Positions 2,318 through 58,522 of a DNA stretch of 64,000 bases are shown in pieces (within the stretch, counting starts at the first letter, position 1; each line of letters starts with the position of its first letter). The translations under genes and the position numbers were made by a program. Below the pieces are notes generated by a model. The model made no database searches. It had not been told where the DNA came from and worked only from the letters and a program-made list of their open reading frames with translations. This DNA is from Candidatus Bathyarchaeota archaeon (GTDB taxonomy: Archaea; Thermoproteota; Bathyarchaeia; Bathyarchaeales; Bathycorpusculaceae), in the NCBI GenBank assembly GCA_963702095.1, contig OY969706.1, forward strand, positions 1,312,001 through 1,376,000. The letters are read 5' to 3'.

Positions 2318-2366
2318 CTGGGACGGCGACATCATCCCCCGTCACAATAAGCGACACCTCAACCAA
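2318..2366 (+). repeat. Hairpin direct repeat C, copy 1
   Basis: CTGGGACGGCGACATCATCCCCCGTCACAATAAGCGA (2318-2354) is identical to 3550-3586, with further similarity for ~12 bp; internal GACGG/CCGTC stem. Confidence 0.95.
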
Positions 2367-2391
2367 ATAAACCTTACAAAAGCGTTTCTCC

Positions 2392-2570
2392 CTCTTTGTG
2401 TGGGTGTGGAGTTTTACGGTGCAACACATGGTTGTTTGAGATGGGATTTGCTTTTTGCCAATGCAATGCTTTTCAGCGCCCGTTTCGGTGTGGGAAAATC
2501 GATTTTCACCACACGCCATACATTGCTCAATGCATAACCCGTTGCCATGTGGGTGTGAAAGCATGTTGAG
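2392..2570 (+). repeat. Dispersed repeat family A, copy 1 (diverged)
   Basis: TGTGGGTGTGG...GTTTCGGTGTGG-N15-CCACACGCC...GTGTGAAAGCATG, colinear with copies at 15.6, 30.8 and 39.1 kb. Confidence 0.85.
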
Positions 2571-2703
2571 TAAGCATAAAAATCCACGGGCATTTCGTTT
2601 ATGCTGAAATGTTGGAAGCGAGCAACCACAAGGGTTGCCGCCGACTAAGCACTCAGGATTTAACAAGTAAATTATATAACCAAACAAACAAACTTATTTA
2701 GTT

Positions 2704-3489
2704 ATGGAAAGAATGGGGAAATACCTCTCAATAGTCTTAGTTTTAATCATAGCATCATCTAGTTGTCTTATTGTCAAATCTGCTGATGCTCAATCAATAT
2801 CTAAACCATCTGCGCCAGAGTTTACAGTTAGATATGTTGATTATTCATATGATGTTCCACCAACTTATGGAATAGACCAGTTTACAGGAAAAGAAACAAT
2901 AGTAAAAAATGGCTATCATGTAGAGAATAGGTCTTTTGAATTCACCATAAGAAACCAACCTTATACGCCCTACGAGGATTCACAGGGTAACAATATCCAT
3001 CTTTTCTATAACCTAAGATTCAAAGGGCATTTCGGAGCCGAATGGATGTACTTCCCCTTTCTTGACAATGGACAAGGCGTTCGCAGATTTGCAGCAGGAC
3101 TATATCAGGTATATGACCCAGACCTCGCAGCATCAAATTCTGCCTTTACAATATTATTAGAAAGTATACCCACCCTATTTTATGACCTACAGGATTATGA
3201 CAAAATGCCAAAAATCGGCGATGAGGTTGATTTTCAAGTACAAGCTGCAATAGGATATGTTAGTTATGCAGGGGATGGTTTCTATTCTTTAGCAGGACAA
3301 TCAAGCAGTTGGAGTAACACACAAACAATAAAAATTTCTGCTGTTTCAGCCTCTGTTTCACATTCTCCAAATCCGACGCCAACGCCTTCAGTTCCAGAAT
3401 TTACCCAAGTTGCAGTGATTTCTTTCTTTGTTTCTCTGCCTCTCCTTGCCCTTCTTGTAAAAAAGAGGTTCTTGTCTAAAGATTTATAA
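2704..3489 (+). CDS. Secreted surface protein with PEF-CTERM-like anchor
   Basis: Signal peptide, KPSAPEFTV motif, P/T linker, VPEF + TM helix + KKR tail; AT-rich. Confidence 0.85.
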   Translation: MERMGKYLSIVLVLIIASSSCLIVKSADAQSISKPSAPEFTVRYVDYSYDVPPTYGIDQFTGKETIVKNGYHVENRSFEFTIRNQPYTPYEDSQGNNIHLFYNLRFKGHFGAEWMYFPFLDNGQGVRRFAAGLYQVYDPDLAASNSAFTILLESIPTLFYDLQDYDKMPKIGDEVDFQVQAAIGYVSYAGDGFYSLAGQSSSWSNTQTIKISAVSASVSHSPNPTPTPSVPEFTQVAVISFFVSLPLLALLVKKRFLSKDL

Positions 3490-3549
3490 CTAGAAACGTA
3501 CAATGTAATTTCAGCAATTCGTCTCGAAAAAAATTACTTTGCCCTAAGG

Positions 3550-3598
3550 CTGGGACGGCGACATCATCCCCCGTCACAATAAGCGAATCCTCAACTAA
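3550..3598 (+). repeat. Hairpin direct repeat C, copy 2
   Basis: 37 bp identical to 2318-2354. Confidence 0.95.
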
Positions 3599-3635
3599 AG
3601 AAGGCAAATTCTAACTATGCTTTTTATCTTAAAAG

Positions 3636-3768
3636 CTGCTTTGCTTGTATTTTGTTCCTCAACCAACCTGCAACGCAACGCAGACACAGAAACCAAAACA
3701 GGTGTCGTAGTCAAACCCAAAGGTTGTTGTTGTGTATAGGGGATTTTCGGCAACAACAACTAAAGAAA
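3636..3768 (+). repeat. Dispersed repeat family B, full copy
   Basis: TGCTTG...CAACCAACCTGCA...GTTGTTGTTG-TGTATAGGGG-N7-GCAACAACAAC hairpin, shared with 46.1 and 57.4 kb. Confidence 0.85.
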
Positions 3769-3845
3769 AAAGCAAACGCCCAAACTTGATCCACTGCTTA
3801 AATAAGGGAGTTGCAGTCTTTTTCCCAGGCAAAGAAGGGATAAAC

Positions 3846-4082
3846 ATGAAAGTCGGCGTCTGCGGAATAGCATGCGAAAAATGCCCCAAAATGACCAAAG
3901 GAACCTGCCCCAACGGCTCAGTCGGTTGCGTTGCACGAGAGAACAGGTTCTGCCAAATCTGCAACTGCGCCCAACAAAAAGGCGTCCGATTCTGCTTTGA
4001 ATGCACCGAGTTCCCATGCGAAACCACCAAACAAGGCCCCATAAGCTACGGTTACTGCCAGTACCTTGCCGGTAAACAGTGA
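3846..4082 (+). CDS. Cys-rich DUF3795-like protein
   Basis: MKVGVCGIACEKCP...CQICNCA...FCFECTEFPC; ATG at 3846 is more plausible than 3732, which lies inside repeat B. Confidence 0.8.
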   Translation: MKVGVCGIACEKCPKMTKGTCPNGSVGCVARENRFCQICNCAQQKGVRFCFECTEFPCETTKQGPISYGYCQYLAGKQ

Positions 4083-4130
4083 AAGGGCTAGTTTTAAGTG
4101 ACTGCAACCAAACATATTAGTTGATTATTT

Positions 4131-7592: not shown

Positions 7593-7655
7593 GTGTTTGT
7601 TGTTTTCTAGTTTAAGATGAAGGCAGTGTCGCCCTTACTCTTCTCCTTCCTATGA

Positions 7656-7736
7656 GTTTGGCGGGCGGCTGTGTTTTGCTTTCTGCAATGGCAATGGACT
7701 GCTGGTTGGTTATGGCGCATTCCTCAAGCAGAACAG
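7656..7736 (-). repeat. Family B, left half without hairpin
   Basis: Reverse complement CTGCTTGA...CGCCATAACCAACCAGCA...GCAGA...AAAACACA...CCCGCCAAAC aligns without gaps to ~46069-46145. Confidence 0.8.
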
Positions 7737-7870
7737 AACACATTTCGGGCGGTTATCAGCGGCTCGTTTAGTTCCTGTTTGCACTGTTTTTAAGTAAATG
7801 TTAAAGCCCCAACCATCAACATTAAAGTGGAGGCTAGCCGACGTCACCTACCCGCCTTAACAATACTACA

Positions 7871-9154
7871 GTGACTGCTAAGCTATGCAGTTTACTTCTT
7901 ATCCTTCTAGCCGCGTCCTGCTTGGTTCAAAACCCACCCGTCCAAGCTCAAGAAAGCACATGGAACAGAATATACACTGACAGCAAAGGCTCAGGAACCT
8001 GCATAATGGCAACCGATAATGGTAGTTACGCGGTCGCTGGAACCAGCAACGGGCGCTATTTATTGGCTAAGGCTGACTCTTCAGGCAACGTGTTACTATG
8101 GAAAACCTTTCAAACAGGCGAAACCAACTGCGCTGTCCAAACCAGCGATGGCGGCTACGCCTTGGCTGGAAGCGGCGAAGTGAACTTCATAAAAACCAAC
8201 TCCGAAGGCAACGTCGAATGGAGCAAGAACTTCATGAACGGCAACATGACCTACACAATAAGCAGCATAGCCAAAACAGGGGATGACGGGTACATACTTA
8301 CAGGTTTGGTCCCATCCGGCCACAATCCGGGGCTTGATTGGACCGTAAAAACCGACCCTGAGGGAAATATTATTTGGAGCAAAACCTTTGGCAGTTGGAG
8401 TACTGTAACAACCGAAGTGATAGAGGTTGAAGGCGGCTACATTTTGGGGGCAAACTTGAACATCTACAAGCTAGACGAAAACGGCGAGATCGTTTGGAGC
8501 AGACATTCAGGTATCATCTACTCCATCGTTAGCACCGCTGATGGAGGTTACTTAATGGTGGTGTCGGGGGACAGCGGTACCCAGAAAGTCGTTAAAACCG
8601 ATTCCGAGGGCTACAATCAATGGGTCAAAACCTATGCAGTGGAGTCAGCAGTCGATTCCGATGTCGGTGAAGCGGTCCAGACTGAAGATGGAGGATTCAT
8701 CATGTGCGGCACTACCTATCCAGCTTGGGAAGCTGTAGGATGGGTTTTCAAGACTGACTCATCTGGAAACCTGAAATGGAACTCCACATCAACCCCTATT
8801 ATCGGCTACAACAGCAGAATATCCTACATCGCTGAAGTGGGCAACGGTGAATACGTTTTTACTGGATCAGTAGGCCCTGTAATGGATTTGAACGCTAATA
8901 CGAGTTTGTGGCTGGTTAAGATGGCTTCTTCAATCCCAACCGCTGTGAACACCTTGATTTCCGAGTCAGTGAATAATTCGGGTTCGGAGCCAACGCAGAC
9001 TCAGGCGTCTACAACCGTGGGGGCTGATGACGAATTAGCGGCGATTCCTCCTTTTATAGTGGCTGTAATAGTTTCGGTTGTAATTTTTGCGTCGGTTTTG
9101 TCTGCTTTACTTTACAAGAGGAGTTATTTGAGCAGAGGTTCTTTGCCGAACTAG
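7871..9154 (+). CDS. Secreted beta-propeller-like surface protein with C-terminal TM anchor
   Basis: Repeated TxDGGY...KTDSxGNxxWxKT units; the true start may be ACG at 7841 after GGAGG. Confidence 0.85.
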   Translation: MTAKLCSLLLILLAASCLVQNPPVQAQESTWNRIYTDSKGSGTCIMATDNGSYAVAGTSNGRYLLAKADSSGNVLLWKTFQTGETNCAVQTSDGGYALAGSGEVNFIKTNSEGNVEWSKNFMNGNMTYTISSIAKTGDDGYILTGLVPSGHNPGLDWTVKTDPEGNIIWSKTFGSWSTVTTEVIEVEGGYILGANLNIYKLDENGEIVWSRHSGIIYSIVSTADGGYLMVVSGDSGTQKVVKTDSEGYNQWVKTYAVESAVDSDVGEAVQTEDGGFIMCGTTYPAWEAVGWVFKTDSSGNLKWNSTSTPIIGYNSRISYIAEVGNGEYVFTGSVGPVMDLNANTSLWLVKMASSIPTAVNTLISESVNNSGSEPTQTQASTTVGADDELAAIPPFIVAVIVSVVIFASVLSALLYKRSYLSRGSLPN

Positions 9155-14524: not shown

Positions 14525-15598
14525 ATGAGCCGCTTTACCATTAAGTCACCGGGTGTTTATGTTCAGAACCTACGAATTGGACCTCAACCCATCGAAGGCG
14601 TTCCGACAGCGACCGCCGCTTTTTTGGGGGAAACCCAGACGGGACCCACGTCGCCCACGCTGGTCACCAGTTGGCAGCAATACCAAGACGTATTCGGCGG
14701 TTTCTTCGGCATAGACAAGTACCTGCCTTATGCTGTTGAGGGCTTTTTTGGTAACGGCGGCAAACGCTGCTACATCTGCAAAGTAACTTGTGGTGATTTC
14801 GCTGGGGCTTTAGCCAAATTGGAGCCAATCGAAGAAGTATCCCTTCTGTACGCGCCAAACGCACAAGCCACCCCAAACCTCTGCAACATGCTCATTTCTC
14901 ATTGCGAGCGGCTCAAGCGGTTTTGCATCGTCGATTCACTAAAGGGCGAGGCACCATCAGAAGTTACAAAGCCACAGGCATCCGCCCATGCAGCCCTGTA
15001 TTATCCATGGATTTACGTTTTTCATGATGGCCAGAAGTGTTTGGTTCCGCCCGGCGGATACGTTGCAGGTGTTTACGCTCGCACGGATATTGGGCGTGGA
15101 GTCCATAAGGCGCCAGCTAACGAAGTTGTCAACGGCGCGGTAGACGTAGAGTTTGCCATAAGCAAAAGTCAGGGGGACAGTCTAAACCCACTTGGAGTTA
15201 ACTGCATACGCAATCTGGAGGGCAGGGGCATCCTTGTTTGGGGTGACAGAACCCTCTCAAGCGACCCCGAATACAAGTACATTAACGTTGAGCGACTGCT
15301 GATTTACGTTGAGCAATCTATTAAGCGTGGCACCGAATGGGTGGTATTTGAGCCAGATGCAGAGTCAACATGGGCTAAGGTGAAGATGCAAGTGCAGAAT
15401 TTTCTAAATCAGACATGGCAAAGCGGCATGTTGATGGGCACTAAACCGCAGGAAGCCTATTTTGTGAAGTGTGACCGAACCACCATGACCCAAAACGACA
15501 TCGATAACGGACGCCTAAACATACTAGTCGGCGTAGCACCGGTTAAACCCGCAGAGTTCCTCATCGTAAGAGTAAATCAAAAGGCTATGTACCAATAG
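14525..15598 (+). CDS. Contractile phage-tail/eCIS sheath protein (orphan)
   Basis: PGVYV, FFGNGG, AALYYPW, RGVHKAPAN, LNPLGVNCIR, VVFEP, FVKCDRTT, APVKPAEF. Confidence 0.93.
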   Translation: MSRFTIKSPGVYVQNLRIGPQPIEGVPTATAAFLGETQTGPTSPTLVTSWQQYQDVFGGFFGIDKYLPYAVEGFFGNGGKRCYICKVTCGDFAGALAKLEPIEEVSLLYAPNAQATPNLCNMLISHCERLKRFCIVDSLKGEAPSEVTKPQASAHAALYYPWIYVFHDGQKCLVPPGGYVAGVYARTDIGRGVHKAPANEVVNGAVDVEFAISKSQGDSLNPLGVNCIRNLEGRGILVWGDRTLSSDPEYKYINVERLLIYVEQSIKRGTEWVVFEPDAESTWAKVKMQVQNFLNQTWQSGMLMGTKPQEAYFVKCDRTTMTQNDIDNGRLNILVGVAPVKPAEFLIVRVNQKAMYQ

Positions 15599-15619
15599 TT
15601 CTCTCCTTTATCGGTAAGA

Positions 15620-15808
15620 AGAAGCAATCGATACATAGTTTCACATCCACACCGCGTCCGCTTCTGCGTGGAGGCATGTACGGCGTGTGGAGAAAAATGG
15701 ATATCCCACACCGAAACAGAGGCTGAAAACCGTTGCAAACCCAAAAAGCAGTTGCATTCAGTTGCCGTCTTGTGGTGCCCTGTAAACCGCCACACCCACA
15801 TAAAGAGA
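15620..15808 (-). repeat. Dispersed repeat family A, copy 2
   Basis: Gap-free colinear with 30800-30988 (offset 15180). Confidence 0.95.
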
Positions 15809-15866
15809 CAAAGGAACAACTACTTAAACGGGCCAAGGGTAAAAATAAGAAAGTGTCGGCTTGTTC

Positions 15867-16292
15867 TCACGTTTGGGTTTTGATGGTTCGGTAGGCAAAG
15901 TAAATTATCATTATACTCCAAATTGTCGTAATTCCGATTGCAGTGCTGGGGAAGAACACGTAAGTTGCAAACACCCGTTGTGTTACGGTGAGTGCGATGG
16001 CGAGGTATGGTGCCCATTTTAGATTTCTTCGCAGTCCGAAGTATATTATTGCAAATACTGCTGCAGCCACGAGTGCTTCAGAGACGACGATTGTGAATCC
16101 CAACCGGTAAATGCTCCACTGCGTAGCTGGAATCAACCAGATGCCAACAGCTATTAGGTCCAAGATTATGTTTGCCAGAACAAGACGGCTCAGTGCCTTA
16201 TGCGGTTTGGCACCATACTTACGCGCCGCAATTACTACAAGTACAATAGCTAAAACCGTGAAGAAAATAAGCAAGATTTCGTCTAAACGCAC
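15867..16292 (-). CDS. Hypothetical membrane protein
   Basis: 4-5 hydrophobic helices. Confidence 0.7.
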   Translation of the reverse strand: MRLDEILLIFFTVLAIVLVVIAARKYGAKPHKALSRLVLANIILDLIAVGIWLIPATQWSIYRLGFTIVVSEALVAAAVFAIIYFGLRRNLKWAPYLAIALTVTQRVFATYVFFPSTAIGITTIWSIMIIYFAYRTIKTQT

Positions 16293-30650: not shown

Positions 30651-30799
30651 TGTCCTGTTATGGTTGATTTGCCATGCCCAAATAACTGTTAGCTCTTACC
30701 TATGTAAAATGGCGTCAGCATTCTTTTATGCCTTATGAATTCCTAAGCTGTACTCTAAAAATCGCTTTACCGCTAATTAGTTTGTGATTAGTGTGAGGA

Positions 30800-30995
30800 A
30801 AAACCAGTCGATACATGCCCCCACATACACATCCAGTCCGCTTCAACATAGAGGCATGCTGGGCGTGTGGAGAAAAACTCTTATGCCACACCGAAACAGA
30901 CGCCAAAAACCGTTGCAAACCAAAAAAGCAAACGCCATCACTTGCGGTCTTGCGGCACCCCCTAAACCGCCACACCCACATAAAGAAAGAAAAAG
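30800..30995 (-). repeat. Dispersed repeat family A, copy 3
   Basis: Begins in the T-tract right after the asnS stop; colinear with the other copies. Confidence 0.95.
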
Positions 30996-32283: not shown

Positions 32284-32359
32284 CGCGGATCAACTGTTTG
32301 CAGTATATCTTGTTTCCGAACCTAAATGCATATCGATTAGGACCGCTGCAGATTTGCCG

Positions 32360-33601: not shown

Positions 33602-33729
33602 TGCAGATAAACTCAGGGCAGAATTATTTAAACAGAGTTTGTACAGAGCGGTTTCTGTGACATTGGATTATCTTTTTATCCCACAATTCTTAAATCGCCC
33701 CTGCAATGAGGTAAAGTAGACTAACGAAG

Positions 33730-35100: not shown

Positions 35101-35111
35101 GGCGCCCAAAA

Positions 35112-35408
35112 TTAGAGTTTCATGATTTGTGCGTGGGGAACGCCTTCTATTTTGAGCACTGCGTCCGGATGTACATATCCCTCCGCGATAGCCTTCCCAA
35201 CGCACATTTCACCCACCAGATTCACGATGGTTGAGTTGCCGATTAACCCGATGGCTTCCTCAACAGTGGCTTTTCGGCCCTTGTAGAACTCGTCTTTTAT
35301 GTGGAAAACAATTTTGCCTTCACGTAGCGTCTTCCCTAACAAGTCGCAGTCGCATACCGCTAAGACAACGTTTCCGCCAACTTTTTTGACGTTAAGGTAA
35401 ACATCCAA
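35112..35408 (-). CDS. DUF424 family protein
   Basis: LAVCDCDLLGK...EFYKG...TIVNLVG...GVPHAQ. Confidence 0.85.
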   Translation of the reverse strand: MDVYLNVKKVGGNVVLAVCDCDLLGKTLREGKIVFHIKDEFYKGRKATVEEAIGLIGNSTIVNLVGEMCVGKAIAEGYVHPDAVLKIEGVPHAQIMKL

Positions 35409-35420
35409 AGCCGGATTCGC

Positions 35421-35831
35421 CTATAACTGTTTAACTGAAGACCGCGCGCCGCAAGCATTACAAACCAAAAACGTGAGGCGTTTTTCCTTCAGGATTTTTG
35501 TATCTGGACGCTTACATACTGGGCATATAACATAGCTTTCCTGGTACCTTTGCAGTAGGCGTTCAAAACTGTCCGTTCGAAATTTGCCTTGGAATATGGC
35601 GCGGGACTCATGGAATGTCGCTGCAGTTGCCATTTCGCGAGTCAAAAACTTCAGCAGATGCTGAGGATCGCGGTCGAGGGCGTCAGCAATTTCTTTAAAG
35701 TTAGAGATTACTGTGCGCATGCCGACGGTTTGAAGCATGATTCGGGGCATTTCCAAGCGCTCTTTTTTTGTTGAAACCTCGGGCATTTGCTCGCAGGCAC
35801 GTTTAAGCAGATCATCGTAGTTGAAGGTCAT
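35421..35831 (-). CDS. Translation initiation factor aIF-2 beta
   Basis: YDDLLKRA, NFKEIADAL, CPVCKRPDT...CNACGA. Confidence 0.95.
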   Translation of the reverse strand: MTFNYDDLLKRACEQMPEVSTKKERLEMPRIMLQTVGMRTVISNFKEIADALDRDPQHLLKFLTREMATAATFHESRAIFQGKFRTDSFERLLQRYQESYVICPVCKRPDTKILKEKRLTFLVCNACGARSSVKQL

Positions 35832-35981
35832 GTTTCCACTTCACCCAATCAAGGTCACCGCCTATATTTAAAATTACTATGAGCACCATACCCTTATGAT
35901 GGTTTTACACTTATTTTTTAGTAACTCATATAAATTCGAAAGTCACTTCGGTATGCATTATCTCCACTAGAAGGCTAACAT

Positions 35982-36950
35982 TTGACAGAGAAACAAACGC
36001 CCAGTCAAATAACAAACATCAATACCCAGATTGACAAACTCAAGGAGCAATCCCGAGAAGCAAACGCTCAGATAAAAAAATTCGTCGAGAAAAGAGATGA
36101 GCTCCACGAGAAGGTTCGAAAAACCCGCGAGGAAGTCAACCAACTTAAAGTTGAACGGGATGCTCTCAACCAGAAAGTCAAGGAACTAAAGCAGCAACGA
36201 GACGCGATCAGGGTTAATGTTACGCCAATTATGGATGAAGTGAAGGGTATCAACGATAAAATCGAAGGGTTAAAAAAGAATCTGCCAAAAGTTAGCCAAC
36301 GAGAACTCAAAAAGGAACATGACGCTATCGAATGGAAAATCTCCACTACCTCTCTTGACCTCCAAGAAGAAAAACACCTCATAGAACAAGTTAAAGAAAT
36401 CGAAATCCAACTTAGCGGTTACAAAAAAATCGATAATCAACGCAAGAAATTAAAGGACCTCTATGAACACAAAAAAACATTCGATGCACAAGCAGACGTT
36501 TACCATAAGGAATTAACCGATTTAGCCAAGAAAAGCCAAGACCTCCACGCTGTCATGATGGAGAAACTTGATGCTATGAAGAAAGACCGCGCGGAAGCCG
36601 ACGCCCTGCATCAATCGTTTGTTAACGCCAAAGAACAGAACAACGGCGTTTACGAGCAAATCCGACTGTTAATCGCTCAATCCACAGGCATCAGGGCATC
36701 CATGCGCGACCAGTATCAAACTTACCGCAGAGAAGACGAAGCCAGACGTAAAGATTTTGACGAAAAACGTAAACAACAAGACGATAAACGCAAACAGGAA
36801 CAAGCGGAACGTGCAGTCAAAGAAGCCGCGATTAAAGAAAAAATCGGTTCAGAAGCACGCGAAAAACTAAACCGCGGGGAAAAAGTCAACTGGGAAGAAT
36901 TCGCATTGATGCTTGGCGACGAAGATGACGAGGCGGAAACGCAAGCTTAA
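35982..36950 (+). CDS. Archaeal coiled-coil protein (COG1340-like)
   Basis: Heptad repeats, IEWKISTTSLDLQEEK, KLNRGEK. Confidence 0.8.
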   Translation: MTEKQTPSQITNINTQIDKLKEQSREANAQIKKFVEKRDELHEKVRKTREEVNQLKVERDALNQKVKELKQQRDAIRVNVTPIMDEVKGINDKIEGLKKNLPKVSQRELKKEHDAIEWKISTTSLDLQEEKHLIEQVKEIEIQLSGYKKIDNQRKKLKDLYEHKKTFDAQADVYHKELTDLAKKSQDLHAVMMEKLDAMKKDRAEADALHQSFVNAKEQNNGVYEQIRLLIAQSTGIRASMRDQYQTYRREDEARRKDFDEKRKQQDDKRKQEQAERAVKEAAIKEKIGSEAREKLNRGEKVNWEEFALMLGDEDDEAETQA

Positions 36951-36985
36951 AGTGATGTTGCTGCAATATTGAGATAGCGATTTCG

Positions 36986-38218
36986 ATGGCTAAACGGGAA
37001 ACGCAACAGCAGACGCAAAAGCGTATCCTCATTTTATGTGTTGACAGAGATGGCGATCTCGAGACTAAAGCAGCCATTAAAACGCCGCTTCTGGGCAGAA
37101 CCGCCAACCTAGACGGCGCAGTCGCCCTTGCACTAAAAGATCCCGAGGAACCCGACGCCAACGCCATGTTCGAAGCCGTCCGACTCTACGACCGCTTACA
37201 CGACGAGAAGACACCTGATGAAGTCTTTGAAGTCGCCACTGTATCAGGCACCGACATAGGTGGTGTAAGCGCCGACCGAAAACTCGTGGCGGAACTAAAC
37301 AGCCTCCAAGAATCGTTTGGTGCCAACGAAGTGATCTTGGTCAGCGACGGCTACTCTGACGAAGCCGTTTTGCCGCTGGTTGAGTCCCGTGTACCTGTCT
37401 CATCCGTGCGCCGCATCGTCATCAAACACAGTGAATCCATCGAGGAAACCGCTGCGGTCTTCACCAAATATGTCCGCCTCTTGGTGGATAATCCCCGATA
37501 TGCCCGCGTGGCATTGGGATTACCTGGTATATTGGTGCTTATCTTCGGTGTTCTTTGGGGCATCAACTACTTCATTCCGGGCGCCATATTCTGGTACGGC
37601 ATCGCAATCCTCATTGTGATTGGCGGGTTTCTGCTGCTTAAAGGCTTCGGCGTAGACCGCGCCACCAAAAACTTTTATCATTGGGCAAGAGACTATGATC
37701 CGCCAGCTCTCCCAATCCAAATATCCAACTATACCATCATCGCAGGTATTCTCTGCATTGCTGTGAGTGTTTATTTGGGTGTAGCAAACGTTATAAAAAA
37801 CGTGCCTTCACCGGTGGATGTAGCCGGCTGGTTAAGTGCCGCGCCCAGAATCGCCACCTTCTTCATCAAAGGCCTCGACGTCTTACTCATAGTAGGCATA
37901 TGCATCGTTCTGTTAGGCAGAAGTGTACGCCTCTACTTCGAAAGAGATTCTCGCTTGCTCCGCAACGTCGCCTTGATCGTATCGGTTGTGTGGGCTCTTT
38001 GGATACTAGAGGGAACCGCAAACATCATCTACAGTATCTTTAACCCCGCAAACGCTGGAGTACCAGTTGTAGGCTTCGAGAACCCAGACTTCGCCAACTT
38101 CATATTTACCATAGTGGTCGGTATCTTAATCGGCATAGCTTCGGTGTTACTAATTCACATCGTTAACCGTTCAACCAAGGGCTTCTTTAAGAGAGAAGAA
38201 AAAACTGAGGAACTCTAA
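36986..38218 (+). CDS. DUF373 family membrane protein
   Basis: LILCVDRDGD, DPEEPDANA, VSDGYSDE. Confidence 0.88.
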   Translation: MAKRETQQQTQKRILILCVDRDGDLETKAAIKTPLLGRTANLDGAVALALKDPEEPDANAMFEAVRLYDRLHDEKTPDEVFEVATVSGTDIGGVSADRKLVAELNSLQESFGANEVILVSDGYSDEAVLPLVESRVPVSSVRRIVIKHSESIEETAAVFTKYVRLLVDNPRYARVALGLPGILVLIFGVLWGINYFIPGAIFWYGIAILIVIGGFLLLKGFGVDRATKNFYHWARDYDPPALPIQISNYTIIAGILCIAVSVYLGVANVIKNVPSPVDVAGWLSAAPRIATFFIKGLDVLLIVGICIVLLGRSVRLYFERDSRLLRNVALIVSVVWALWILEGTANIIYSIFNPANAGVPVVGFENPDFANFIFTIVVGILIGIASVLLIHIVNRSTKGFFKREEKTEEL

Positions 38219-38314
38219 CCCGTCTTGGGTTCGGAACTTAGGTGAGTAAGCTTTAATTGAAACCCCAAAGGTTAACCTCTACAATAGACGTCGTGCATAT
38301 GCGAGGACCATTCA

Positions 38315-39109
38315 ATGCTTGAGAAAATGCTTTCTTTTATCGGCGCTTACAGGCTTTATGAGAAATGGCTGTGGCAGCAGGTTAAGAACGGCGTAAAACC
38401 AGAGCATATCGCCATAATCTTAGACGGCAACAGAAGATGGGCAAACCAGCAGGAAACGCATCCGTTTTTGATGGGCGATAAATGGGGTCACAGCGACGGC
38501 GCCGACACGGTTGAGCAACTGCTGGATTGGTGCCACCTACTCGACGTGAAATACGTGACGCTCTACACTTTCTCAACAGAGAACTTTTCTAGGCACTCTG
38601 ATGAAGTTACCAAAATTATGCAGATTGCTGAGGAGCGGTTCCATAAACTCTTAAAAGACGAACGCATTCACCGAGACAAAATCCATGTTAAAGTCATAGG
38701 CAGAGTAAACCTCTTGCCGCAGAGCCTCCAAGACGTGATTGCGGAGCTTGAAGCGGCAACTGCAACCTATGACTGTTACTTCTGGAACTTTGCCTTCGCT
38801 TATGGCGGCAGAGCAGAAATAGTGGACGCCGCAAAAACCATCGCTAAAAAAGTACAGAACAAAGAAATAGAAATCGACGACATCACAGAGAGCACCTTTG
38901 AAAAATACCTCTACACATCACACATGAACAAGGACCCGGACATGATCATTCGCACCTCAGGCGAAGAACGCCTCAGCGGCTTTCTACTCTGGCAAGCAGC
39001 TTACAGTGAACTGCTGTTTTTAGACGTGTATTGGCCTGACTTCCGCCTAATCGACCTGCTAAGGGCAATCAGGGTTTTCCAGCATCGTAAACGCCGATTC
39101 GGCGCATAA
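38315..39109 (+). CDS. uppS: cis-Prenyltransferase (polyprenyl diphosphate synthase)
   Basis: HIAIILDGNRRW, FSTENF, IRTSGEERLSGFLLWQ, RRFG. Confidence 0.95.
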   Translation: MLEKMLSFIGAYRLYEKWLWQQVKNGVKPEHIAIILDGNRRWANQQETHPFLMGDKWGHSDGADTVEQLLDWCHLLDVKYVTLYTFSTENFSRHSDEVTKIMQIAEERFHKLLKDERIHRDKIHVKVIGRVNLLPQSLQDVIAELEAATATYDCYFWNFAFAYGGRAEIVDAAKTIAKKVQNKEIEIDDITESTFEKYLYTSHMNKDPDMIIRTSGEERLSGFLLWQAAYSELLFLDVYWPDFRLIDLLRAIRVFQHRKRRFGA

Positions 39110-39113
39110 ACAA

Positions 39114-39300
39114 TTTTTCTTTCTTTATGTGGGTGTGGCGGTTTACGGGGTGCCACAAGACGGCTTGGGAAAAGTTGCATTCAACCATTGCAACGTTTTT
39201 TGGCGTCTGTTTTGGTGTAGAATACGTATTTTTCTCCACACCCTGTACATGGCTCTATGCAGGGGCAAGCCAGTGTGGATGTGAAAGCATGTATCTTTTG
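39114..39300 (+). repeat. Dispersed repeat family A, copy 4
   Basis: TTTATGTGGGTGTGGCGGTTTA...GATGTGAAAGCATGTATC right after the uppS stop. Confidence 0.93.
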
Positions 39301-39478
39301 CTTTTTCTACGAGAATTATCGAGAAAGCAATGAACACCTAACGAGACCATCGCAAAGAATCTTCGAGAGGAGGATTGTGATTGTTGGTTACATGATACAG
39401 CCACAAAGCAGTTTATAGTCCATCTACCGATTCTTAGACTGGCTATCCAACCTTTTTTGTTCATAGAGGAAAACCGCA

Positions 39479-43461: not shown

Positions 43462-43583
43462 AACTACTTGCACTAATAAATTTTTCTGGACGCAAAAAAC
43501 AAATCAACACAACTTAAACATCAAAACATCCCCTACAAGCCTACAGCCAACCTAAAACTGTAAAGCAAAAAGTAAATGAAAAG

Positions 43584-45078: not shown

Positions 45079-45125
45079 ACCAACCCGCAACCCAAACAAT
45101 AACCCAACACCAAAACAAACACGGC
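45077..45125 (+). repeat. Family B, short left-half fragment
   Basis: AACCAACCCGCAACCCAA...CAAAACA resembles ~46090-46135. Confidence 0.5.
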
Positions 45126-45129
45126 AGCT

Positions 45130-45402
45130 ATGAGCAAATAACAAACGTTATCACCTATACCGTCTTGTCGACGCAACAGAAGACGACTCAAGAGAACAGA
45201 CGGCTATTGGGTTAATCCGCTGAGTCCTAATACGCCAAAGATTATAGCGCTATACCAGCAAGGCTTAGGTCAAGCGGATATTTGCAAAAGCTTAGGCATG
45301 GATTCTGAGTCCTATCGCCCACACGTTTCTAAAGTTCTTGGTAGAGCAAGAGCCAGAGGTATCATCAAATACCTACCTTGGCTTGAGAGATTACTGATCT
45401 GA
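45130..45402 (+). pseudogene. HTH protein remnant (SorC/DeoR-like HTH)
   Basis: MSK-stop, then an open frame containing IIALYQQGLGQADICKSLG...VSKVLGRARARGII. Confidence 0.5.
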
Positions 45403-45579
45403 TAGGAAATAATATGCCCCTCATGGAGTGTATAGGATTAAGTACGCATAACCTCAAGTTTACTCTTTTCCCATGCTTTTACTATTCGAAAACGTGAAAA
45501 TGCGGTAGAAGATTCGCTCTCAAAAAAACCCGATGCTCCACCTTTTGGTTTGAGCCTAAAAAAAGTAATCTTGGGGTTT

Positions 45580-45783
45580 CTATAGGTGAGATTGAGACGT
45601 TTTGGTTTCTCTGTCCCTATACTGTTCTATGCGAAATAGTTTTTCCTCTTGCGATAGTTCGACTACAATGTCACTTTCATCCAATAGCTTTGGAGGTAAC
45701 TTATCTCTTAATATAGAAATAACCAATTGAACATTTTTATCTTTCACAAATTGTGCTACCTGCAAAAGTTGGTTATCGTGCAT
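45580..45783 (-). pseudogene. C-terminal fragment of a DUF2326-like (ABC three-component/Lamassu-type ATPase) protein
   Basis: MHDNQL...VQLVISILRDKLP...ELSQEEKLFRIE resembles DUF2326 C-termini as recalled; AT-rich. Confidence 0.55.
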
Positions 45784-45818
45784 GCCCTTTTGGCAACCCG
45801 ACACGCAACGAGGGCAAG
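45782..45818 (-). repeat. 37-bp perfect inverted copy of 46356-46392
   Basis: Reverse complement equals CTTGCCCTCGTTGCGTGTCGGGTTGCCAAAAGGGCAT. Confidence 0.95.
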
Positions 45819-46061
45819 ACCTTTTTTGCCACCCCTTACTTTATTACTTATCAGCCTGCCATCTCTACACCCTTCTAGTCTAATACCTGCCATTTTTTAG
45901 CCCCCATTCTTTGTTTACCATTTATAGTTTTAAGGTTTGCTAGGCACACAGGTGACGGTTTTTCACAAGTTGGAGCTTAGAAAAATTGCGCTATGTTGGG
46001 TGACACAGACTTCAAAGAGCCGGAGGGGAGCTCGGCAAAGCAACAAACCCACACCGCCCTA

Positions 46062-46200
46062 CCCTCAACTGCTTGAAAAAACCGCCACAACCAACCAGCA
46101 ACCCAACACAAACGCAGACACAAAAACACAACGCCCCGCCAAACCCGCTGCTTGTTGTTGTGTATAGGGGGTTTTTAGCAACAACACACTGATAAAAAAA
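46062..46200 (+). repeat. Dispersed repeat family B, full copy
   Basis: CAACCAACCAGCA...TTGTTGTTG-TGTATAGGGGG-TTTTTA-GCAACAACA. Confidence 0.88.
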
Positions 46201-46257
46201 CCTCATAGTGGCTGCCACTGTATATATGGGTCTTGTGTTGTTGTTGTTTGATTTGCG

Positions 46258-46623
46258 ATGCCCACTGAGAATTTTAAAGCTTACATTGTTGCCTTGATTT
46301 TGGATGGCAAACCCGAAGATGCGCTAGAGTTGCTATCAAAAGAATACAACGTCACCTTGCCCTCGTTGCGTGTCGGGTTGCCAAAAGGGCATAAAACAAC
46401 CGCATACGGATGCTACAGCGCAAAAACACAGTCAATCACCGTACTCAACAGCGACATACTCATCAACCCCTTTGTTATTCTCCACGAATTCTACCATCAC
46501 CTGCGGAGCAAAGCGGTGGATCGGGTGCATCGAGGCACCGAAGGCAACGCAGACAAATTCGCCATGGATTACCTGCAGCAATATCAACTTGCTGTGTTGA
46601 GGGCTCAGTTGGGCAGTCAATAA
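46258..46623 (+). CDS. Small zincin-like HExxH protein
   Basis: AYGCY...VILHEFYHH...EGNADKFA. Confidence 0.8.
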   Translation: MPTENFKAYIVALILDGKPEDALELLSKEYNVTLPSLRVGLPKGHKTTAYGCYSAKTQSITVLNSDILINPFVILHEFYHHLRSKAVDRVHRGTEGNADKFAMDYLQQYQLAVLRAQLGSQ

Positions 46624-55128: not shown

Positions 55129-55163
55129 AAAATTCCCTTACATATTTAGGGTGTTCTTGCTTA

Positions 55164-55403: not shown

Positions 55404-55510
55404 CTAATTTTTTTAGGTTATTCCCTTTACCGCATATTTCCTTTTTGACAAATTTTAAACAGAGTTAACTGTATTTAAGATCTGATAATAAAAAATAAAA
55501 GATTTAGTGC

Positions 55511-55819: not shown

Positions 55820-55943
55820 CTTCCTTTTAATAGATTATTCTCTTGGAATATCTATTAAAGCTGCGTTGCTGTCTTGCGGCAACAACAAAACGTTATAAGC
55901 AGAGAAACGGGTGCTGCAAGAAACCAGAGAAAGAAGGGGATGG

Positions 55944-56486
55944 TTACCCATTGGTTGTTTTCATATCAATTAGCGAAAACACTTCGTATTTGTCGCCTAA
56001 GAGTTTGCGTCCGCCCAAATAGTTCAGCTCGATTAGGAATCCTAATCCTGCGACTTTACCGCCTAGTTTTTCGACTAATTCTATGTTGGCTTTTACTGTT
56101 CCGCCTGTTGCCAATAAGTCATCTATGATTAACACGTTTTGGCCTTTTGAAATGGCGTCTTCATGGATTTGGATGGTGTCTTTGCTGTATTCGGTTTGGT
56201 AGGTGTAGTCGAGGCATTTGTAGGGTAATTTACCTTTTTTGCGGATTGGGACAAAACCAACGCCTAACTCGTAAGCCAACGGTGCGCCGACGATGAATCC
56301 GCGGGCTTCGTTGGAGACGATAACGTCGATTTTTTTGCCTCTATAGTGGTCTGCGAGTTGCTTTATGGTTTCTTTGTAGCATACGGGGTCTTTTAGGAGG
56401 GTTGTTATGTCCCAGAATACTACGCCTTTGAATTCGGGGATTCTACGGACTTTGCTTTTCAAATCGATTTTGTCGGTTTTATTCAT
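55944..56486 (-). CDS. apt: Adenine phosphoribosyltransferase
   Basis: FWDITTLL, EARGFI, IRKKGKLP, IIDDLLATGGT; ATG at 56486 after AGGAG. Confidence 0.95.
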   Translation of the reverse strand: MNKTDKIDLKSKVRRIPEFKGVVFWDITTLLKDPVCYKETIKQLADHYRGKKIDVIVSNEARGFIVGAPLAYELGVGFVPIRKKGKLPYKCLDYTYQTEYSKDTIQIHEDAISKGQNVLIIDDLLATGGTVKANIELVEKLGGKVAGLGFLIELNYLGGRKLLGDKYEVFSLIDMKTTNG

Positions 56487-56500
56487 GTCAATTTCTCCTG

Positions 56501-57292
56501 TTAAGCAAATGCGCCGGTTAAGGCGTGGCTGCATTGGCAACTGCATTCGCTGGGGGTTTTGGCGATGGTTTCAGCGATTATGCGTTTAACGTTGTCGATG
56601 CCTGTTTTCATGGTGTTAACGATGTCGTCAACGCATACTGCGTGGTCTTTCCAGCAGTCATAGTCGGTGACCGTGGATATGTTTGAATAACAGATTTCCG
56701 CTTCCCGTGCCAAAACAACTTCGGGAACCATCGTCATGCCGATGATGTCTGCACCCCATTTCTGGTACATGCGGGATTCAGCTTTTGTTGAGAACCGTGG
56801 TCCCTCGATGCAGACGTATGTGCCTGTTGGGTGGTTTTTGATTTTTAGGCTGTTGGCTACGTCGATTATGGTTTGGTGGAGTTGTGGGCACATGGGTTCA
56901 GCGACGGATATGTGGCATACTTTGCCTTCTGAGAGGGTGTAGAATGATTGTTCTCTTTTGGTTGTGCGGTCGATGAATTGGTCGGCGAAGACTATGTCGC
57001 CTGGCTGGTAATCCTCGCGCAGTGACCCAACGGTTGAAGCTGCCAGAATGCGTTTTACGCCCAAGCGTTTGAGCGCCCAGATGTTGGCTCTTACGTTGAT
57101 GTCTGTGGGGCGTATGGTGTGCAGTTTTCCATGTCGTGGCAGAAACGCCACGGTTTTGCCGCCTAGTTCGCCGACTGTGATGGCGTCGGAGGGTTTCCCG
57201 TAGGGTGACTCTAAAGTGATTTCCTGTATGTTTTTGAGAAGTTTGGGGTCGTAGAGACCTGTTCCGCCGATTACTCCAAATTCAACTTGCAT
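56501..57292 (-). CDS. mtaP: S-methyl-5'-thioadenosine phosphorylase
   Basis: GVIGGTG, FLPRHG, EGPRFSTKAES, GMT, TDYDCW. Confidence 0.93.
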   Translation of the reverse strand: MQVEFGVIGGTGLYDPKLLKNIQEITLESPYGKPSDAITVGELGGKTVAFLPRHGKLHTIRPTDINVRANIWALKRLGVKRILAASTVGSLREDYQPGDIVFADQFIDRTTKREQSFYTLSEGKVCHISVAEPMCPQLHQTIIDVANSLKIKNHPTGTYVCIEGPRFSTKAESRMYQKWGADIIGMTMVPEVVLAREAEICYSNISTVTDYDCWKDHAVCVDDIVNTMKTGIDNVKRIIAETIAKTPSECSCQCSHALTGAFA

Positions 57293-57391
57293 AGCTTTAA
57301 CTGCAAGCGCTGGGTTTATAAAAATAGCGACTCTGAGCCGACGTTTGCTGCTCTGCCGCTACCTCCCCTCCCATATTTACCGATGGATCAA

Positions 57392-57527
57392 ATTTTTCTA
57401 TAGTTGTTGTTGCAGAAGACCCCCTATACACAACAACAACCCGCCGAATGTAGGGTGCAATGCTTTTTGGGGTAGGCGTCGGATTTGAAATGCTGGTTGG
57501 TTGTAGAGCAAACTACAAGCAGAACAG
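57392..57527 (-). repeat. Dispersed repeat family B, full copy
   Basis: Reverse complement CTGTTCTGCTTG...CAACCAACCAGCA...GTTGTTGTTG-TGTATAGGGGG-TCTTCT-GCAACAACAAC. Confidence 0.88.
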
Positions 57528-57556
57528 TATGGTTTGTCTTTCGGCAGCTATGAGCA

Positions 57557-58522
57557 CTACGAGAAAGGGGGTACTGTTTGTCGAAGGGTTAGCTGGCTTG
57601 ATGAATTACTCTGCTTTGATTTGCCTAAGGGCATACGGCTCCTTTCGTAAGTAGCTATTGCTAATGCTGCAATTACCGCTGCCAAAACTGTGATAACAAC
57701 AACAAAAATCAAAGATGAAAAAGGCTCTGACGGCGCTTCAATAATGAAATTGACTGTTTGAGATACACCCATAACACCCGCTGTATCGTTAGCGTAAACT
57801 GCTAAAGTGTGATTTCCAAACGTTAACCCCGTCAACGATGAATTTCCCGTAAAGGTAACGTTGTCCTGGTTGTCTAAACTGTAACCTACCCAAGAAACAG
57901 GCACATCAGTTGTAAAGTTAAGTGACAAGTCCTTTGAAGAATAGCTTATGTTTTCAGGAGAAAAAACCTTAATCACAGGCGCCCGCACCGTAAAATTGAG
58001 GGTAGCTTGCGCAACCTCAACCTCATCACGTGGTGGATTGTTTATCATCCTTGCGATCCATTTTCCATAAACAGTTATACTGTGATCTCCAACTGGTAAC
58101 AGAGGCAAAACAACTGACCCGTTCATGTTTACCTGCCAATAGTGAGGATCAATTTCCGCCAGCTCTATATGCATAGTGTAGTTTACTGATCCATCAATGC
58201 TGTATGTTATAAGTATCTCGATGTTACCCACCTTAAACACACGGCCATTGATGCTGAGCATTCTTGAGGGAAGGGTGTAACTAACTTCAAAACTGCCGCC
58301 GCCAAAACCACCTCGAAATATGCCTTTTGCCGTAATTGACGTGGAACCAGTCGGTGATAAAGCTGACTGCATCGGTCCTGATGAATTTGTAAGCTCCGGA
58401 TATAGGGAAGAGGATTTTTGTGGGATAGGCGGCTGTTCAGGAAAAAAAGATCCAGCATCAGTCGAGGATACTGAGGATATAACGAGAATCATCAAAAGTG
58501 CTAATGTTATCTTTCCTCTCAA
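57557..58522 (-). CDS. Secreted Ig-like surface protein with EPF-TM anchor
   Basis: Signal peptide, YSLDNQDNVT...GNHTLAVYANDTAG, SEPF + TM helix. Confidence 0.82.
   Translation of the reverse strand: MRGKITLALLMILVISSVSSTDAGSFFPEQPPIPQKSSSLYPELTNSSGPMQSALSPTGSTSITAKGIFRGGFGGGSFEVSYTLPSRMLSINGRVFKVGNIEILITYSIDGSVNYTMHIELAEIDPHYWQVNMNGSVVLPLLPVGDHSITVYGKWIARMINNPPRDEVEVAQATLNFTVRAPVIKVFSPENISYSSKDLSLNFTTDVPVSWVGYSLDNQDNVTFTGNSSLTGLTFGNHTLAVYANDTAGVMGVSQTVNFIIEAPSEPFSSLIFVVVITVLAAVIAALAIATYERSRMPLGKSKQSNSSSQLTLRQTVPPFS

Follow-up and report, generated by a model that had tools for sequence, protein, structure and literature searches.

Prokaryotic MITEs, including archaeal ones from Sulfolobus and haloarchaea, are short, non-coding, multi-copy, intergenic and structured elements associated with rearrangements. 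Integron attC sites, such as the VCRs of Vibrio, are structured repeats of ~60-140 nt that stand beside single promoterless genes; they carry conserved RYYYAAC/GTTRRRY core sites, and their strand-specific folding matters. tRNA and tmRNA genes serve as polar integration sites for genomic islands, the far end of which keeps a partial direct repeat of the target. REPs are palindromes of 20-40 nt, with a cognate RAYT gene for each family. REP elements and the RAYT (Y1 HUH) transposases are the subject of Nunvar et al. (2010, PMC2817692). For Neisseria, the part of Bentley et al. (2007, PMC1797815) drawn upon describes intergenic mosaic elements (dRS3/RS arrays), Correia elements and “minimal mobile elements”. 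In these genomes 20-bp inverted repeats flank RS units of 50-150 bp, often in long arrays, and it is proposed that the repeats favour the exchange of genes next to them, perhaps by way of a site-specific recombinase acting on the repeat; a phage recombinase targeting dRS3 is known.

The window analysed here is a 64,000-nt stretch of the 2.94-Mb genome G000 of a Bathyarchaeota archaeon, in which three repeat families, A, B and C, had been proposed to mark accessory genes. Bathyarchaeia are a widespread uncultured group, and a literature search found no paper on interspersed repeats in them. The genome was compared with its closest relative, G007, with G046, the relative used for core and accessory labels, and with G005. 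A and B proved to be genuine families present at the places originally given for them. Family A (~192 nt) has 114 nhmmer matches in the genome, 95 of them near full length, and family B (~134 nt) has 179, of which 147 are near full length. A de novo census of intergenic DNA recovered them as the only two large families (B 168 segments, A 98, followed by small families of 22, 10 and 5 copies), and together they make up ~1.7% of the genome. The third proposed family was rejected: “C”, with two full copies in the genome (91% identical) and three weak partial matches, is a local two-copy duplication. The features of the window are as follows, the strand of A copies being the orientation that tolerates G-U pairs.

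2315..2370, + strand: “C” copy 1, its sequence kept in G007 and G005 at 85-86%
2384..2578, + strand: family A copy, 3' end towards the low-GC VPEF gene (2704-3489)
3547..3602, + strand: “C” copy 2, 91% identical to copy 1 and in direct repeat with it
3638..3773, - strand: family B copy, conserved in G007, 3' end towards the variable VPEF segment
about 7593..7741, + strand: family B copy of the GAAG/CTTC hairpin subfamily (earlier a “B half”), 3' end towards the 427-aa gene (7871-9154)
14601..16249, no strand: segment missing from G007, with the tail-sheath-like gene, an A copy and a 141-aa ORF
15614..15813, - strand: family A copy, 3' end towards the stop of the tail-sheath-like gene (14525-15598)
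30792..30994, - strand: family A copy, 3' end towards the start of the 639-aa gene (28731-30650); reciprocal-exchange site
39113..39311, + strand: family A copy, directly after the prenyltransferase gene (38315-39109)
46067..46201, - strand: family B copy, within a segment missing from G007 (45082-46286)
57386..57526, + strand: family B copy, also in G007
57527..58812, no strand: G000-specific segment with a 321-aa gene lacking a Pfam match; begins at the 3' end of B

The two “C” copies bracket the first A copy and the VPEF gene, and in G007 this A is missing at the same locus beyond about its first 18 nt. The A copy at 15614..15813 falls within the segment missing from G007, the tail-sheath-like gene of which is present in G005. 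At the site of the A copy at 39113..39311, G007 carries B instead, with identical polarity. Homology between G000 and G007 stops right after the 3' end (...GAACAG|) of the B copy at 57386..57526, where G000 has 1.28 kb with the 321-aa gene, for which no DNA match at E<=1e-30 was found in the four relatives searched. All the adjacencies to variable genes listed in the original prediction hold, save that only one B and no separate half was found in the tRNA-Val island. The core run at 31-39 kb is indeed free of elements (none between 31001 and 39111), and A does point at a gene start in three of the four window cases. Several genes taken to be accessory (tail-sheath-like, S53-like) are conserved in G046 by best reciprocal hit.

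Genome-wide, the copies are almost all intergenic (mean coding overlap 7% for A and 2% for B), and the 293 elements are spread over ~269 separate spacers. Each of the four possible layouts of the flanking genes occurs about equally often (A 29/20/34/31, B 43/43/43/50), and no orientation bias of A or B towards neighbouring genes was seen. Only about half of the copies turn the relevant end to a gene start (59/112 for A, 88/179 for B), on which grounds the idea of portable promoters was dropped. A supposed special link to surface proteins likewise found no support, the genes on the variable side of the elements resembling accessory genes in general.

The families are modular. A 130-nt extension module has 41 matches, 33 of them abutting A; A-B tandems occur at no fewer than 10 loci in one common order and orientation; and the three units, which often follow one another as extension module, A and B, form the regular mosaic by which REP/BIME systems are recognised. 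High-frequency variants in the stems preserve G-U pairing on one strand; on the other they would be A-C. In the G-U-tolerant orientation both A and B start with a T-run at the 5' end. B carries a subterminal hairpin 7 nt from its 3' end. Among 135 copies the B hairpin is of the GTTGTTG/CAACAAC type in 51, GAAG/CTTC in 60 and other in 24, and the two subfamilies differ by 4-5 pairs flipped from U-A to A-U. A subset of B copies is flanked, as judged by eye, by an inverted “CAGTGGATCAAA” motif. The ends of A carry CACAYCCACA motifs as direct, not inverted, repeats; neither terminal inverted repeats nor, with no empty site available for comparison, a target-site duplication was found for A, so that its status as a strict MITE is unproven. 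Flank information content is ~0 beyond both ends of A.

Copies of A share a mean pairwise identity of 71% and those of B one of 62%, and the four A copies of the window have a mean column identity of 68%. A occurs in 8 and B in 3 of the 24 sampled species of the genus, G046 having no full B, and neither was found in 16 sampled genomes from the other 15 genera of the order. Orthologous copies in G000 and G007 are 72.6% identical, compared with 79.5% for other intergenic DNA nearby and 88% for coding DNA; the copies thus evolve no more slowly than other intergenic DNA, with no sign of purifying selection. Some B copies from different species are 90-100% identical over the 50-nt hairpin module, against ~73% for whole orthologous copies, which hints at constraint or conversion on that module. 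RNAalifold over 23 copies from three species gave only -9.5 kcal/mol (covariation term -0.5), and compensatory change was found in 2 of 24 pairs, the B hairpin flips being the exception. Rfam returned no match to A or B even at E<=5, and neither is tRNA-like. Conserved RNA genes were rejected as an identity for A and B on the Rfam result and the divergence of orthologs, which is at least as fast as that of nearby intergenic DNA.

Core and accessory labels were assigned by best reciprocal hit against a single comparison genome, G046. Elements occupy 42 of 1046 syntenic core-core spacers (4.0%), 106 of 400 synteny breaks (26.5%) and 103 of 651 core/accessory borders (15.8%). With residual spacer length and orientation type as strata, the Cochran-Mantel-Haenszel odds ratio is 3.1 for breaks (p=1e-7) and 1.9 for borders (p=0.004). 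The enrichment at variable DNA that had been put forward as a check is therefore recovered with spacer length controlled, about three-fold at breaks and two-fold at borders against one relative. The broader claim, that repeats mark most accessory-gene insertions, fails: only 21 of 95 clean accessory islands have A or B and 74 have no element, and within the window an element is likewise missing from 7 of the 13 variable spacers that are 120 nt or longer. Among 14 colinear indels against G007, 8 have no element nearby, and two lie at the 5' end of an element.

One fixed end of A and B is turned to variable DNA (36:12 for A, 52:15 for B), irrespective of gene strand. This polarity is robust to gene-call stringency and recurs, more weakly, for A copies of a second species; elements at the borders of clean islands point in 20 times and out 4 times. 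Spacing is symmetric in syntenic spacers, whereas at breaks and borders there is extra DNA on the 3' side of the element only. The 5'-side neighbour gene has an ortholog in 85% of cases, against 75% of all robust genes, and lies close to the element, ~63 nt from a stop. At 12 sites an A of G046 is matched by an element in the facing G000 spacer (7 B, 5 A), and at 11 of these 12 the shared gene is on the 5' side of the element. Genes of one surface-protein family end 14-25 nt away from the 3' end of an A or a B copy. Of the non-trivial homologous flank pairs, 29 are on the 3' side (7 clusters, 23 elements) and 2 on the 5' side. Three duplicated blocks, given here in genome coordinates, end exactly at the element's 5' terminus and reach a variable length 3'-ward.

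1918540-1919094 / 2225632-2226187: duplicated block pair with its end at the element 5' terminus
930523-931075 / 2864734-2865279: duplicated block pair with its end at the element 5' terminus
432031-432436 / 2050703-2050299: duplicated block pair with its end at the element 5' terminus

A further duplicated block, of 2.9 kb (197822-200718 / 988056-990947), ends at the 3' terminus of a partial B and has its cargo on the other side.

Comparison with G007 revealed one reciprocal A x A exchange, in which the arrangements X-A-Y and U-A-V of G000 correspond to X-A-V and U-A-Y; the copies concerned lie at 30792-30994 of the window and 1848055-1848239 of the genome. Six comparisons of G000 with G007 show homology running out within about 35 nt of the 3' terminus of the element, a pattern that looks more site-specific than general recombination. 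Homology breaks fall at the 3' end in seven cases, one of them off the terminus, and at the 5' end in two (p=0.18). B is present in both genomes where G000-specific single-gene segments begin 0-25 nt past its 3' end (window 57527, genome 1918680), and G007 has B without cargo at two loci. At 16 B-bordered clean islands G046 has neither B nor the island. The proposal that the elements act as recombination sites is thus borne out in part, by the A x A exchange, the polarity and the enrichment at breaks and borders. No simple presence or absence of an element was seen in the ~210 kb compared with G007, and there is no sign of current mobility of A or B.

A search for mobility enzymes in G000 found no IS elements, no multi-copy long repeats, no long autonomous copies of A or B, no split copies holding an ORF and no partner transposase, nor, in G000 alone, a related autonomous IS sharing the element ends. 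The Y1 transposase domain (PF01797; control positive in 6 of 14 known genomes) and TnpB (PF07282) are both absent, and IS200/IS605-derived elements (PATE) and TnpB guide RNAs were accordingly rejected as identities, although hairpins are present. The Y2 search is uninformative, its control having matched nowhere. Tyrosine recombinases (PF00589) gave seven matches, five over the Pfam cut-off; by coordinates, no recombinase consistently adjoins the elements, and no PF00589 match adjoins an array because no arrays exist.

We lean somewhat towards reading A and B as two lineage-restricted, old and decayed, non-autonomous MITE/BIME/NIME-like repeats whose present role is mainly to supply portable homology and fragile or permissive sites. 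The families would have spread in an ancestor of a subclade of the genus, probably via a single-stranded, hairpin-bearing intermediate of one defined strand. Ectopic recombination between copies has rearranged the chromosome in the single exchange observed, and elements together with one-sided blocks of DNA have been duplicated or replaced at several loci; both processes would lead the elements to collect at synteny breaks and along the margins of variable segments. No polarity is expected from simple homologous recombination between copies; the observed polarity is strong, which counts against this explanation, and the facing of one end to variable DNA is not explained by the repeat and recombination model alone.

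In a second reading A and B would be polar landing pads, the 3' terminal hairpin being an attachment site at which a recombinase encoded elsewhere inserts or exchanges DNA; this corresponds to the distributed integron first proposed and resembles integration at tRNA gene 3' ends. This reading is unlikely, for all that it fits the independence of polarity from gene strand, the confinement of extra DNA to the 3' side, the inward-pointing border elements, the G000-specific segments starting just past a B shared with G007, the occupation of a given gene end by A or B, depending on the species, with unchanged polarity, and the five tyrosine recombinase matches. Within 6 kb of the elements, short direct repeats of their 3' terminal 32 nt are in no excess downstream (mean score 10.93 vs 10.94 upstream, n=165), and orphan terminal motifs outside annotated copies amount to no strong B 3'-terminal motif and two for A. 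Most clean islands and most G007 indels lie away from elements, with two indels at the opposite end, the 7:2 ratio of breaks is slight, and a consistent neighbouring recombinase is missing. Alternatively, A and B may be the constant end of longer mobilisable blocks that vary at the other end, the element arriving with its 3'-side DNA; IS91/ISCR or Helitron read-through and 3' transduction are the analogues. The blocks that end exactly at the 5' terminus, the excess of flank pairs on the 3' side, the surface-protein gene family ending beside A or B, the joint lack of B and island in G046 and the subterminal hairpin of B all agree with this, but an HUH Y1 transposase is absent, the Y2 search is silent, long autonomous copies are missing, G007 has B without cargo, the 2.9-kb block carries its cargo on the opposite side, and ordinary segmental duplication of paralogous genes could account for many of the flank homologies. 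We regard it, too, as improbable.

Selection beside particular genes on functional non-coding elements (small RNA genes, terminators, insulators or portable promoters) seems very unlikely. Kept hairpins with wobble-tolerant variation on one strand, the T-run, the close and unusually conserved 5'-side neighbour and the B hairpin module highly conserved across species speak for it; the Rfam result, the weak consensus fold with little compensatory change, the divergence of orthologs, the indifference to gene starts or ends and the absence of the families from most species of the genus argue against it. It is intriguing to hypothesize, if only as a doubtful proposition, that A and B are the fixed hairpin-bearing end of a gene-shuffling system so far undescribed in archaea, which would gain, swap or copy DNA segments, in many cases one surface-protein gene each, specifically at the 3' terminus of the repeats. 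The enzyme might then, in an equally tentative extension, be either no longer encoded in G000 or not yet recognisable, with the elements as polar landing pads or one-ended mobilisation origins rather than passive repeats. A and B mark a quarter of G000 synteny breaks and, at ~1.7% of the genome, are useful markers of genome plasticity and of assembly breaks in Bathyarchaeia.

Set against the described systems, A and B do not behave like integron cassettes, and the integron-like organisation originally pictured found no support: the elements are dispersed singly, with no fixed orientation to an ORF and no end repeat at the far side of islands. With attC sites they share the build of a structured repeat beside single promoterless genes and the importance of strand-specific folding, but they have no arrays, no apparent adjacent integrase with attI and, as judged by eye, no RYYYAAC/GTTRRRY core sites at their termini. 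They resemble tRNA and tmRNA integration sites in having variable DNA 3' of a structured element, whatever the strands of the island genes, but far-end repeats are not enriched. Like REP/BIME elements they exceed 100 copies per genome and are extragenic, hairpin-forming, mosaic-combining and lineage-specific, whereas at 134-192 nt they are 4-5 times longer and PF01797 is absent from G000. With MITEs they share being short, non-coding, multi-copy, intergenic, structured and rearrangement-associated; in contrast, neither terminal inverted repeats nor target duplications were found for A, G000 has no related IS, and the copies are old. The Neisseria repeats, in the part of that work considered here (PMC1797815), are likewise abundant, modular, non-coding and intergenic, tied to variable genes, many of them for surface proteins, with alternative gene sets at syntenic sites. 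A and B differ in being single elements of 134-192 nt or short mosaics of extension module, A and B, in an archaeon, with no known recombinase and with a one-sided polarity that this part of the Neisseria account does not describe. If the polarity reflects a site-specific process, A and B would represent in archaea what has been proposed for Neisseria, an exchange of genes mediated by repeats.

The two dispersed intergenic repeat families, A and B, were recovered at the places in the window at which the original prediction had put them, and the core run of 31-39 kb was indeed free of both (no A or B found by profile search in window 31001-39111).

Repeat elements of the window (repeat search)
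Window 2.4, 15.6, 30.8 and 39.1 kb: copies of A, ~195 nt each
Window 3.7, 46.1 and 57.4 kb, with a variant at 7.6-7.7 kb: copies of B, ~135 nt
Window 2315-2370 and 3547-3602: C, a 56-nt direct repeat, 91% identical

Mean column identity in alignments of the window copies is 68% for the four A and 61% for the four B. Pfam assigns housekeeping and transporter genes of ordinary kinds over the window and gives no match for the 261-aa VPEF, 427-aa, 639-aa and 321-aa proteins or a 75-aa ORF. The exception among the genes held to be accessory is a lone tail-sheath-like gene (14525-15598; Phage_sheath_1 and Phage_sheath_1C), whose surroundings contain no other tail genes, and which a further relative (G005) possesses and the closest relative (G007) lacks at this locus.

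The window corresponds to bases 1312001-1376000 of a genome of 2.94 Mb on one contig. Across this whole genome, profile searches returned 114 matches to A with a 192-nt model and 179 to B with a 134-nt model, of which 95 and 147, respectively, are near full length. Mean coding overlap is 7% for A and 2% for B, so the elements are almost wholly intergenic, and the four flanking-gene arrangements are used at similar rates (29/20/34/31 for A, 43/43/43/50 for B). An all-against-all comparison of intergenic DNA yielded 340 repeated segments covering 51.9 kb, nearly all of them B (168) or A (98), together with smaller families of 22, 10 and 5 copies (~163, ~57 and ~117 nt, respectively; for example genome 100460-100581 and 364097-364245). 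A 130-nt extension module, with 41 matches, directly abuts the 3' end of A in 33 of them (e.g., genome 471410-471536 and 363857-363984) and is absent from all four A copies of the window, while A-B tandems occur in one fixed order and orientation at no fewer than 10 loci. By eye, some B copies lie between the two arms of an inverted motif (...CCCTTATCAGTGGATCAAA / TTTGATCCACTGATAAGGG...), which suggests that a larger palindromic unit may surround B.

The association of the elements with variable DNA was assessed on 2911 genes called by a simple home-made codon-usage caller, 1772 of which (median 74% amino-acid identity) were labelled core by best reciprocal match to a whole genome of the same genus in three contigs (G046), the single reference on which these labels rest. 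Restricted to robust genes, the set comprises 2400 spacers, 269 of them with an element.

Spacers containing an element, by class of neighbouring genes
Core-core, neighbours adjacent in the reference too: 42 of 1046 (4.0%)
Core-core, synteny broken: 106 of 400 (26.5%)
Core/accessory border: 103 of 651 (15.8%)
Accessory/accessory: 18 of 303 (5.9%)

When spacers are stratified by gene orientation type and by the length that remains after subtraction of the element, and compared with syntenic spacers, synteny breaks (OR 3.1, p=1e-7) and core/accessory borders (OR 1.9, p=0.004) remain enriched, with an OR of 0.55 (p=0.08) for accessory/accessory spacers; long spacers between core genes therefore do not contain elements just as often. 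Among window spacers of 120 nt or more, an element is present in 6 of the 13 variable and 1 of the 11 syntenic ones. Thus the idea that the elements mark accessory insertions holds as an enrichment at breaks and borders, but not in the strong form that most insertions are so marked: of the 95 clean islands, meaning stretches of accessory genes flanked by core genes that adjoin in the reference, only 21 have an element, and 6 of 14 colinear indels relative to the closest relative touch one while 8 do not. The statistical link of the elements to variable DNA is real and polar, and the observation from which it started was largely right.

Polarity is seen at core/accessory borders, where the 3' end of the element (the end at profile position 1, named for the orientation that tolerates wobble pairs) is directed toward the accessory gene in 36 of 48 cases for A (p=7e-4) and 52 of 67 for B (p=6e-6); the strictest gene set is still asymmetric, at 22:11 and 33:10. 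Over all copies, neighbours with an ortholog make up 65% on the 3' side and 85% on the 5' side, the value for all robust genes being 75%. Elements at the borders of clean islands point inward in 20 cases and outward in 4, and all eight copies of the window point toward the gene taken to be accessory. In syntenic spacers the gaps on the two sides of an element are alike (starts lie ~155 nt away, stops 52-66 nt), and at breaks and borders they become longer on the 3' side only (264-387 nt and 129-169 nt). Gene strand is irrelevant to the polarity, which is the same next to gene starts and gene stops; this argues against the proposed role as portable promoters. In the reference genome, whose full set is 36 copies of A and a single weak fragment of B, A shows the same direction weakly (14:5 for robust genes, p=0.064; 16:5 by a separate count). 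At the 12 sites where an A of the reference has a counterpart at the same gene end in the present genome, that counterpart is B in seven and A in five, and in 11 it has the gene on its 5' side.

Comparison at the nucleotide level covered ~210 kb of sequence of the closest relative, whose core genes are 84-89% identical to those of the window, and 27 elements, so that the breakpoint counts are small.

Homology between the genome and its closest relative at 27 elements
Continues through both element ends: 6 of 27
Stops on the 3' side: 7 of 27 (offsets -33 to +24 nt; one, at -165, is really at the 5' end)
Stops on the 5' side: 2 of 27
Element within unaligned DNA: 12 of 27

Two segments begin at a B shared with this relative: a 1.28-kb segment with the 321-aa gene (window 57527-58812) directly after its terminal ...GAACAG, and a 1.5-kb segment (genome 1918680-1920183) whose one gene, of 421 aa, has atypical codon usage, and which is flanked by an imperfect 10-nt direct repeat. 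Rearrangement at the elements is also directly visible. One contig of the relative joins genome 1851175-1848233 to window 30859-26568 via an A remnant, another joins window 35964-31001 to genome 1847761-1847281 via B and a partial A, and the present genome has A copies at both exchange points (window 30792-30994 and genome 1848055-1848239); the joins are a reciprocal exchange at two A copies. At 39.1 kb, the same gene end has A in the present genome and B in the relative, where the DNA past B stems from a region beside another B of the present genome. Within the genome itself, homologous flank pairs number 29 non-trivial ones on the 3' side (7 clusters, 23 elements) versus 2 on the 5' side; pairs at 100% identity, in which the flanks of neighbouring elements overlap, were left out. 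Three duplicated blocks have the 5' terminus of an element as their exact boundary. The largest cluster is a surface-protein gene family whose C-terminal anchor (...FFKRRR stop) ends at a distance of 14-25 nt from an A or B 3' terminus. The left half of B does not encode the C-terminus of such proteins, as B sits past the stop codon and is oriented at random relative to genes.

Other variable places in the window deserve mention. A perfect 37-nt inverted repeat (45782-45818 / 46356-46392) has one arm inside a conserved 121-aa gene (46258-46623) and the other in a segment (45082-46286) that is missing from the closest relative and in which a small HTH-like ORF (~45190-45405) and a copy of B also lie. 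Opposite window 43490-43583, the relative has ~3.2 kb of extra DNA between the binding-protein gene and tRNA-Val (contig C9, 12456-15669), so the tRNA-Val flank is variable there too.

At the VPEF locus, the low-GC gene and its A sit between the copies of C, with B just outside. The closest relative retains C (85% identical), B and seemingly ~18 nt of the 5' end of A, and has between C and B 2.7 kb of other DNA with ORFs of 209 and 336 aa and no informative Pfam match; the locus is therefore a slot with replaceable content between the start of A and the 3' end of B. The postulated third family did not survive the profile search, which found two copies of C plus three weak fragments genome-wide: C is a conserved non-coding stretch that has been duplicated locally. 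The stretch that holds its first copy (window 2273-2379) is 85-86% identical in both the closest and the further relative, the adjacent coding DNA being ~73% identical in the latter, and may be a conserved non-coding element or itself an attachment site.

Rfam gave no match for the window at gathering thresholds, nor for single A and B copies at E<=5. TnpB (PF07282) and Y1 transposase (PF01797) are absent from the genome, although the control searches detected them in 8 and 6, respectively, of 14 known genomes; the Y2 profile (PF04986) matched none of the control genomes. The genome has no multi-copy long repeats of the IS kind, and autonomous copies can be set aside, no split A or B halves enclosing an ORF. 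The termini of A are direct rather than inverted motifs, which counts against a strict MITE, and the flanks beyond both ends have no information content and so give no sign of terminal inverted repeats or target duplications. The 3-kb "B ... partial B" arrangement resembled an integrated element but contains two secreted-protein genes and, judging by eye from the translations, no recombinase; three such pairs have equal spacing and only two are homologous. Two loci (genome 197822-200718 / 988056-990947) share a 2.9-kb block that carries two secreted-protein genes, is 87% identical between them and has fragmented ORFs in the second copy; it begins exactly at the terminus of a partial B, and a full B lies ~160 nt off at both loci.

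The polarity keeps alive a site-specific gain of DNA at element ends, with the element serving as a landing pad or being mobilised from one end, and the two mechanisms jointly carry about a third of the weight in our judgement. Against them, local alignments for 165 elements showed no excess of repeats of the last 32 nt of each element (3' end) in the 6 kb downstream (mean score 10.93, vs 10.94 upstream), so the 17/22 similarity to it where the 321-aa gene segment ends on the right is taken as noise and not as an att repeat. A PWM scan found almost no strong orphan terminal motifs (>=18 bits; none for B and two for A), the majority of islands and indels have no element, and the seven tyrosine recombinase matches do not, by coordinates, consistently adjoin elements. 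The lack of far-end repeats and the scarcity of orphan motifs also speak against the distributed integron first envisaged, which, like the promoter role, is not supported.

Alignments of 93 A and 135 B copies show a favoured strand, the reverse of the profile orientation, on which frequent stem variants are G-U where the opposite strand would give A-C (single pairs: G-C 62 / G-U 22 / A-C 1; U-A 52 / U-G 39 / C-A 2). In 37 predicted A pairs, 92% of cells are canonical on this strand, versus 30-65% with partners slid; low-frequency stem variants display only a mild asymmetry in a tally (~41 G-U-type vs 26 A-C-type). The main B hairpin is GTTGTTG/CAACAAC in 51 of the 135 copies, GAAG/CTTC in 60 and other in 24, the two named subfamilies differing by four to five pairs flipped from U-A to A-U. 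RNAalifold on 23 A copies of three species gave no more than -9.5 kcal/mol, the covariation term being -0.5 and 2 of 24 pairs showing compensatory change. Orthologous elements are 72.6% identical between the genome and its closest relative (1378 columns), adjacent other intergenic DNA 79.5% and coding DNA 88%; paralogous copies average 71% for A and 62% for B. Constraint would thus have acted on master copies, possibly through a single-stranded folded intermediate during spreading, and inserted copies would then decay neutrally. An oddity is the 50-nt B hairpin module (window 57393-57444 and many contigs of both relatives), 90-100% identical between some copies of the three genomes, as against ~73% for whole orthologous copies. 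Among 24 sampled species of the genus, A occurs in 8 and B in 3 (one by a single weak match), and neither was found in 16 sampled genomes from the 15 other genera of the order.

Taken together, A and B are best regarded as old mosaic repeats, interspersed through the genome, that both promote and mark rearrangement. Their closest published parallel is the system of repeats between genes in Neisseria, for which a role in the exchange of neighbouring genes has been proposed (PMC1797815).
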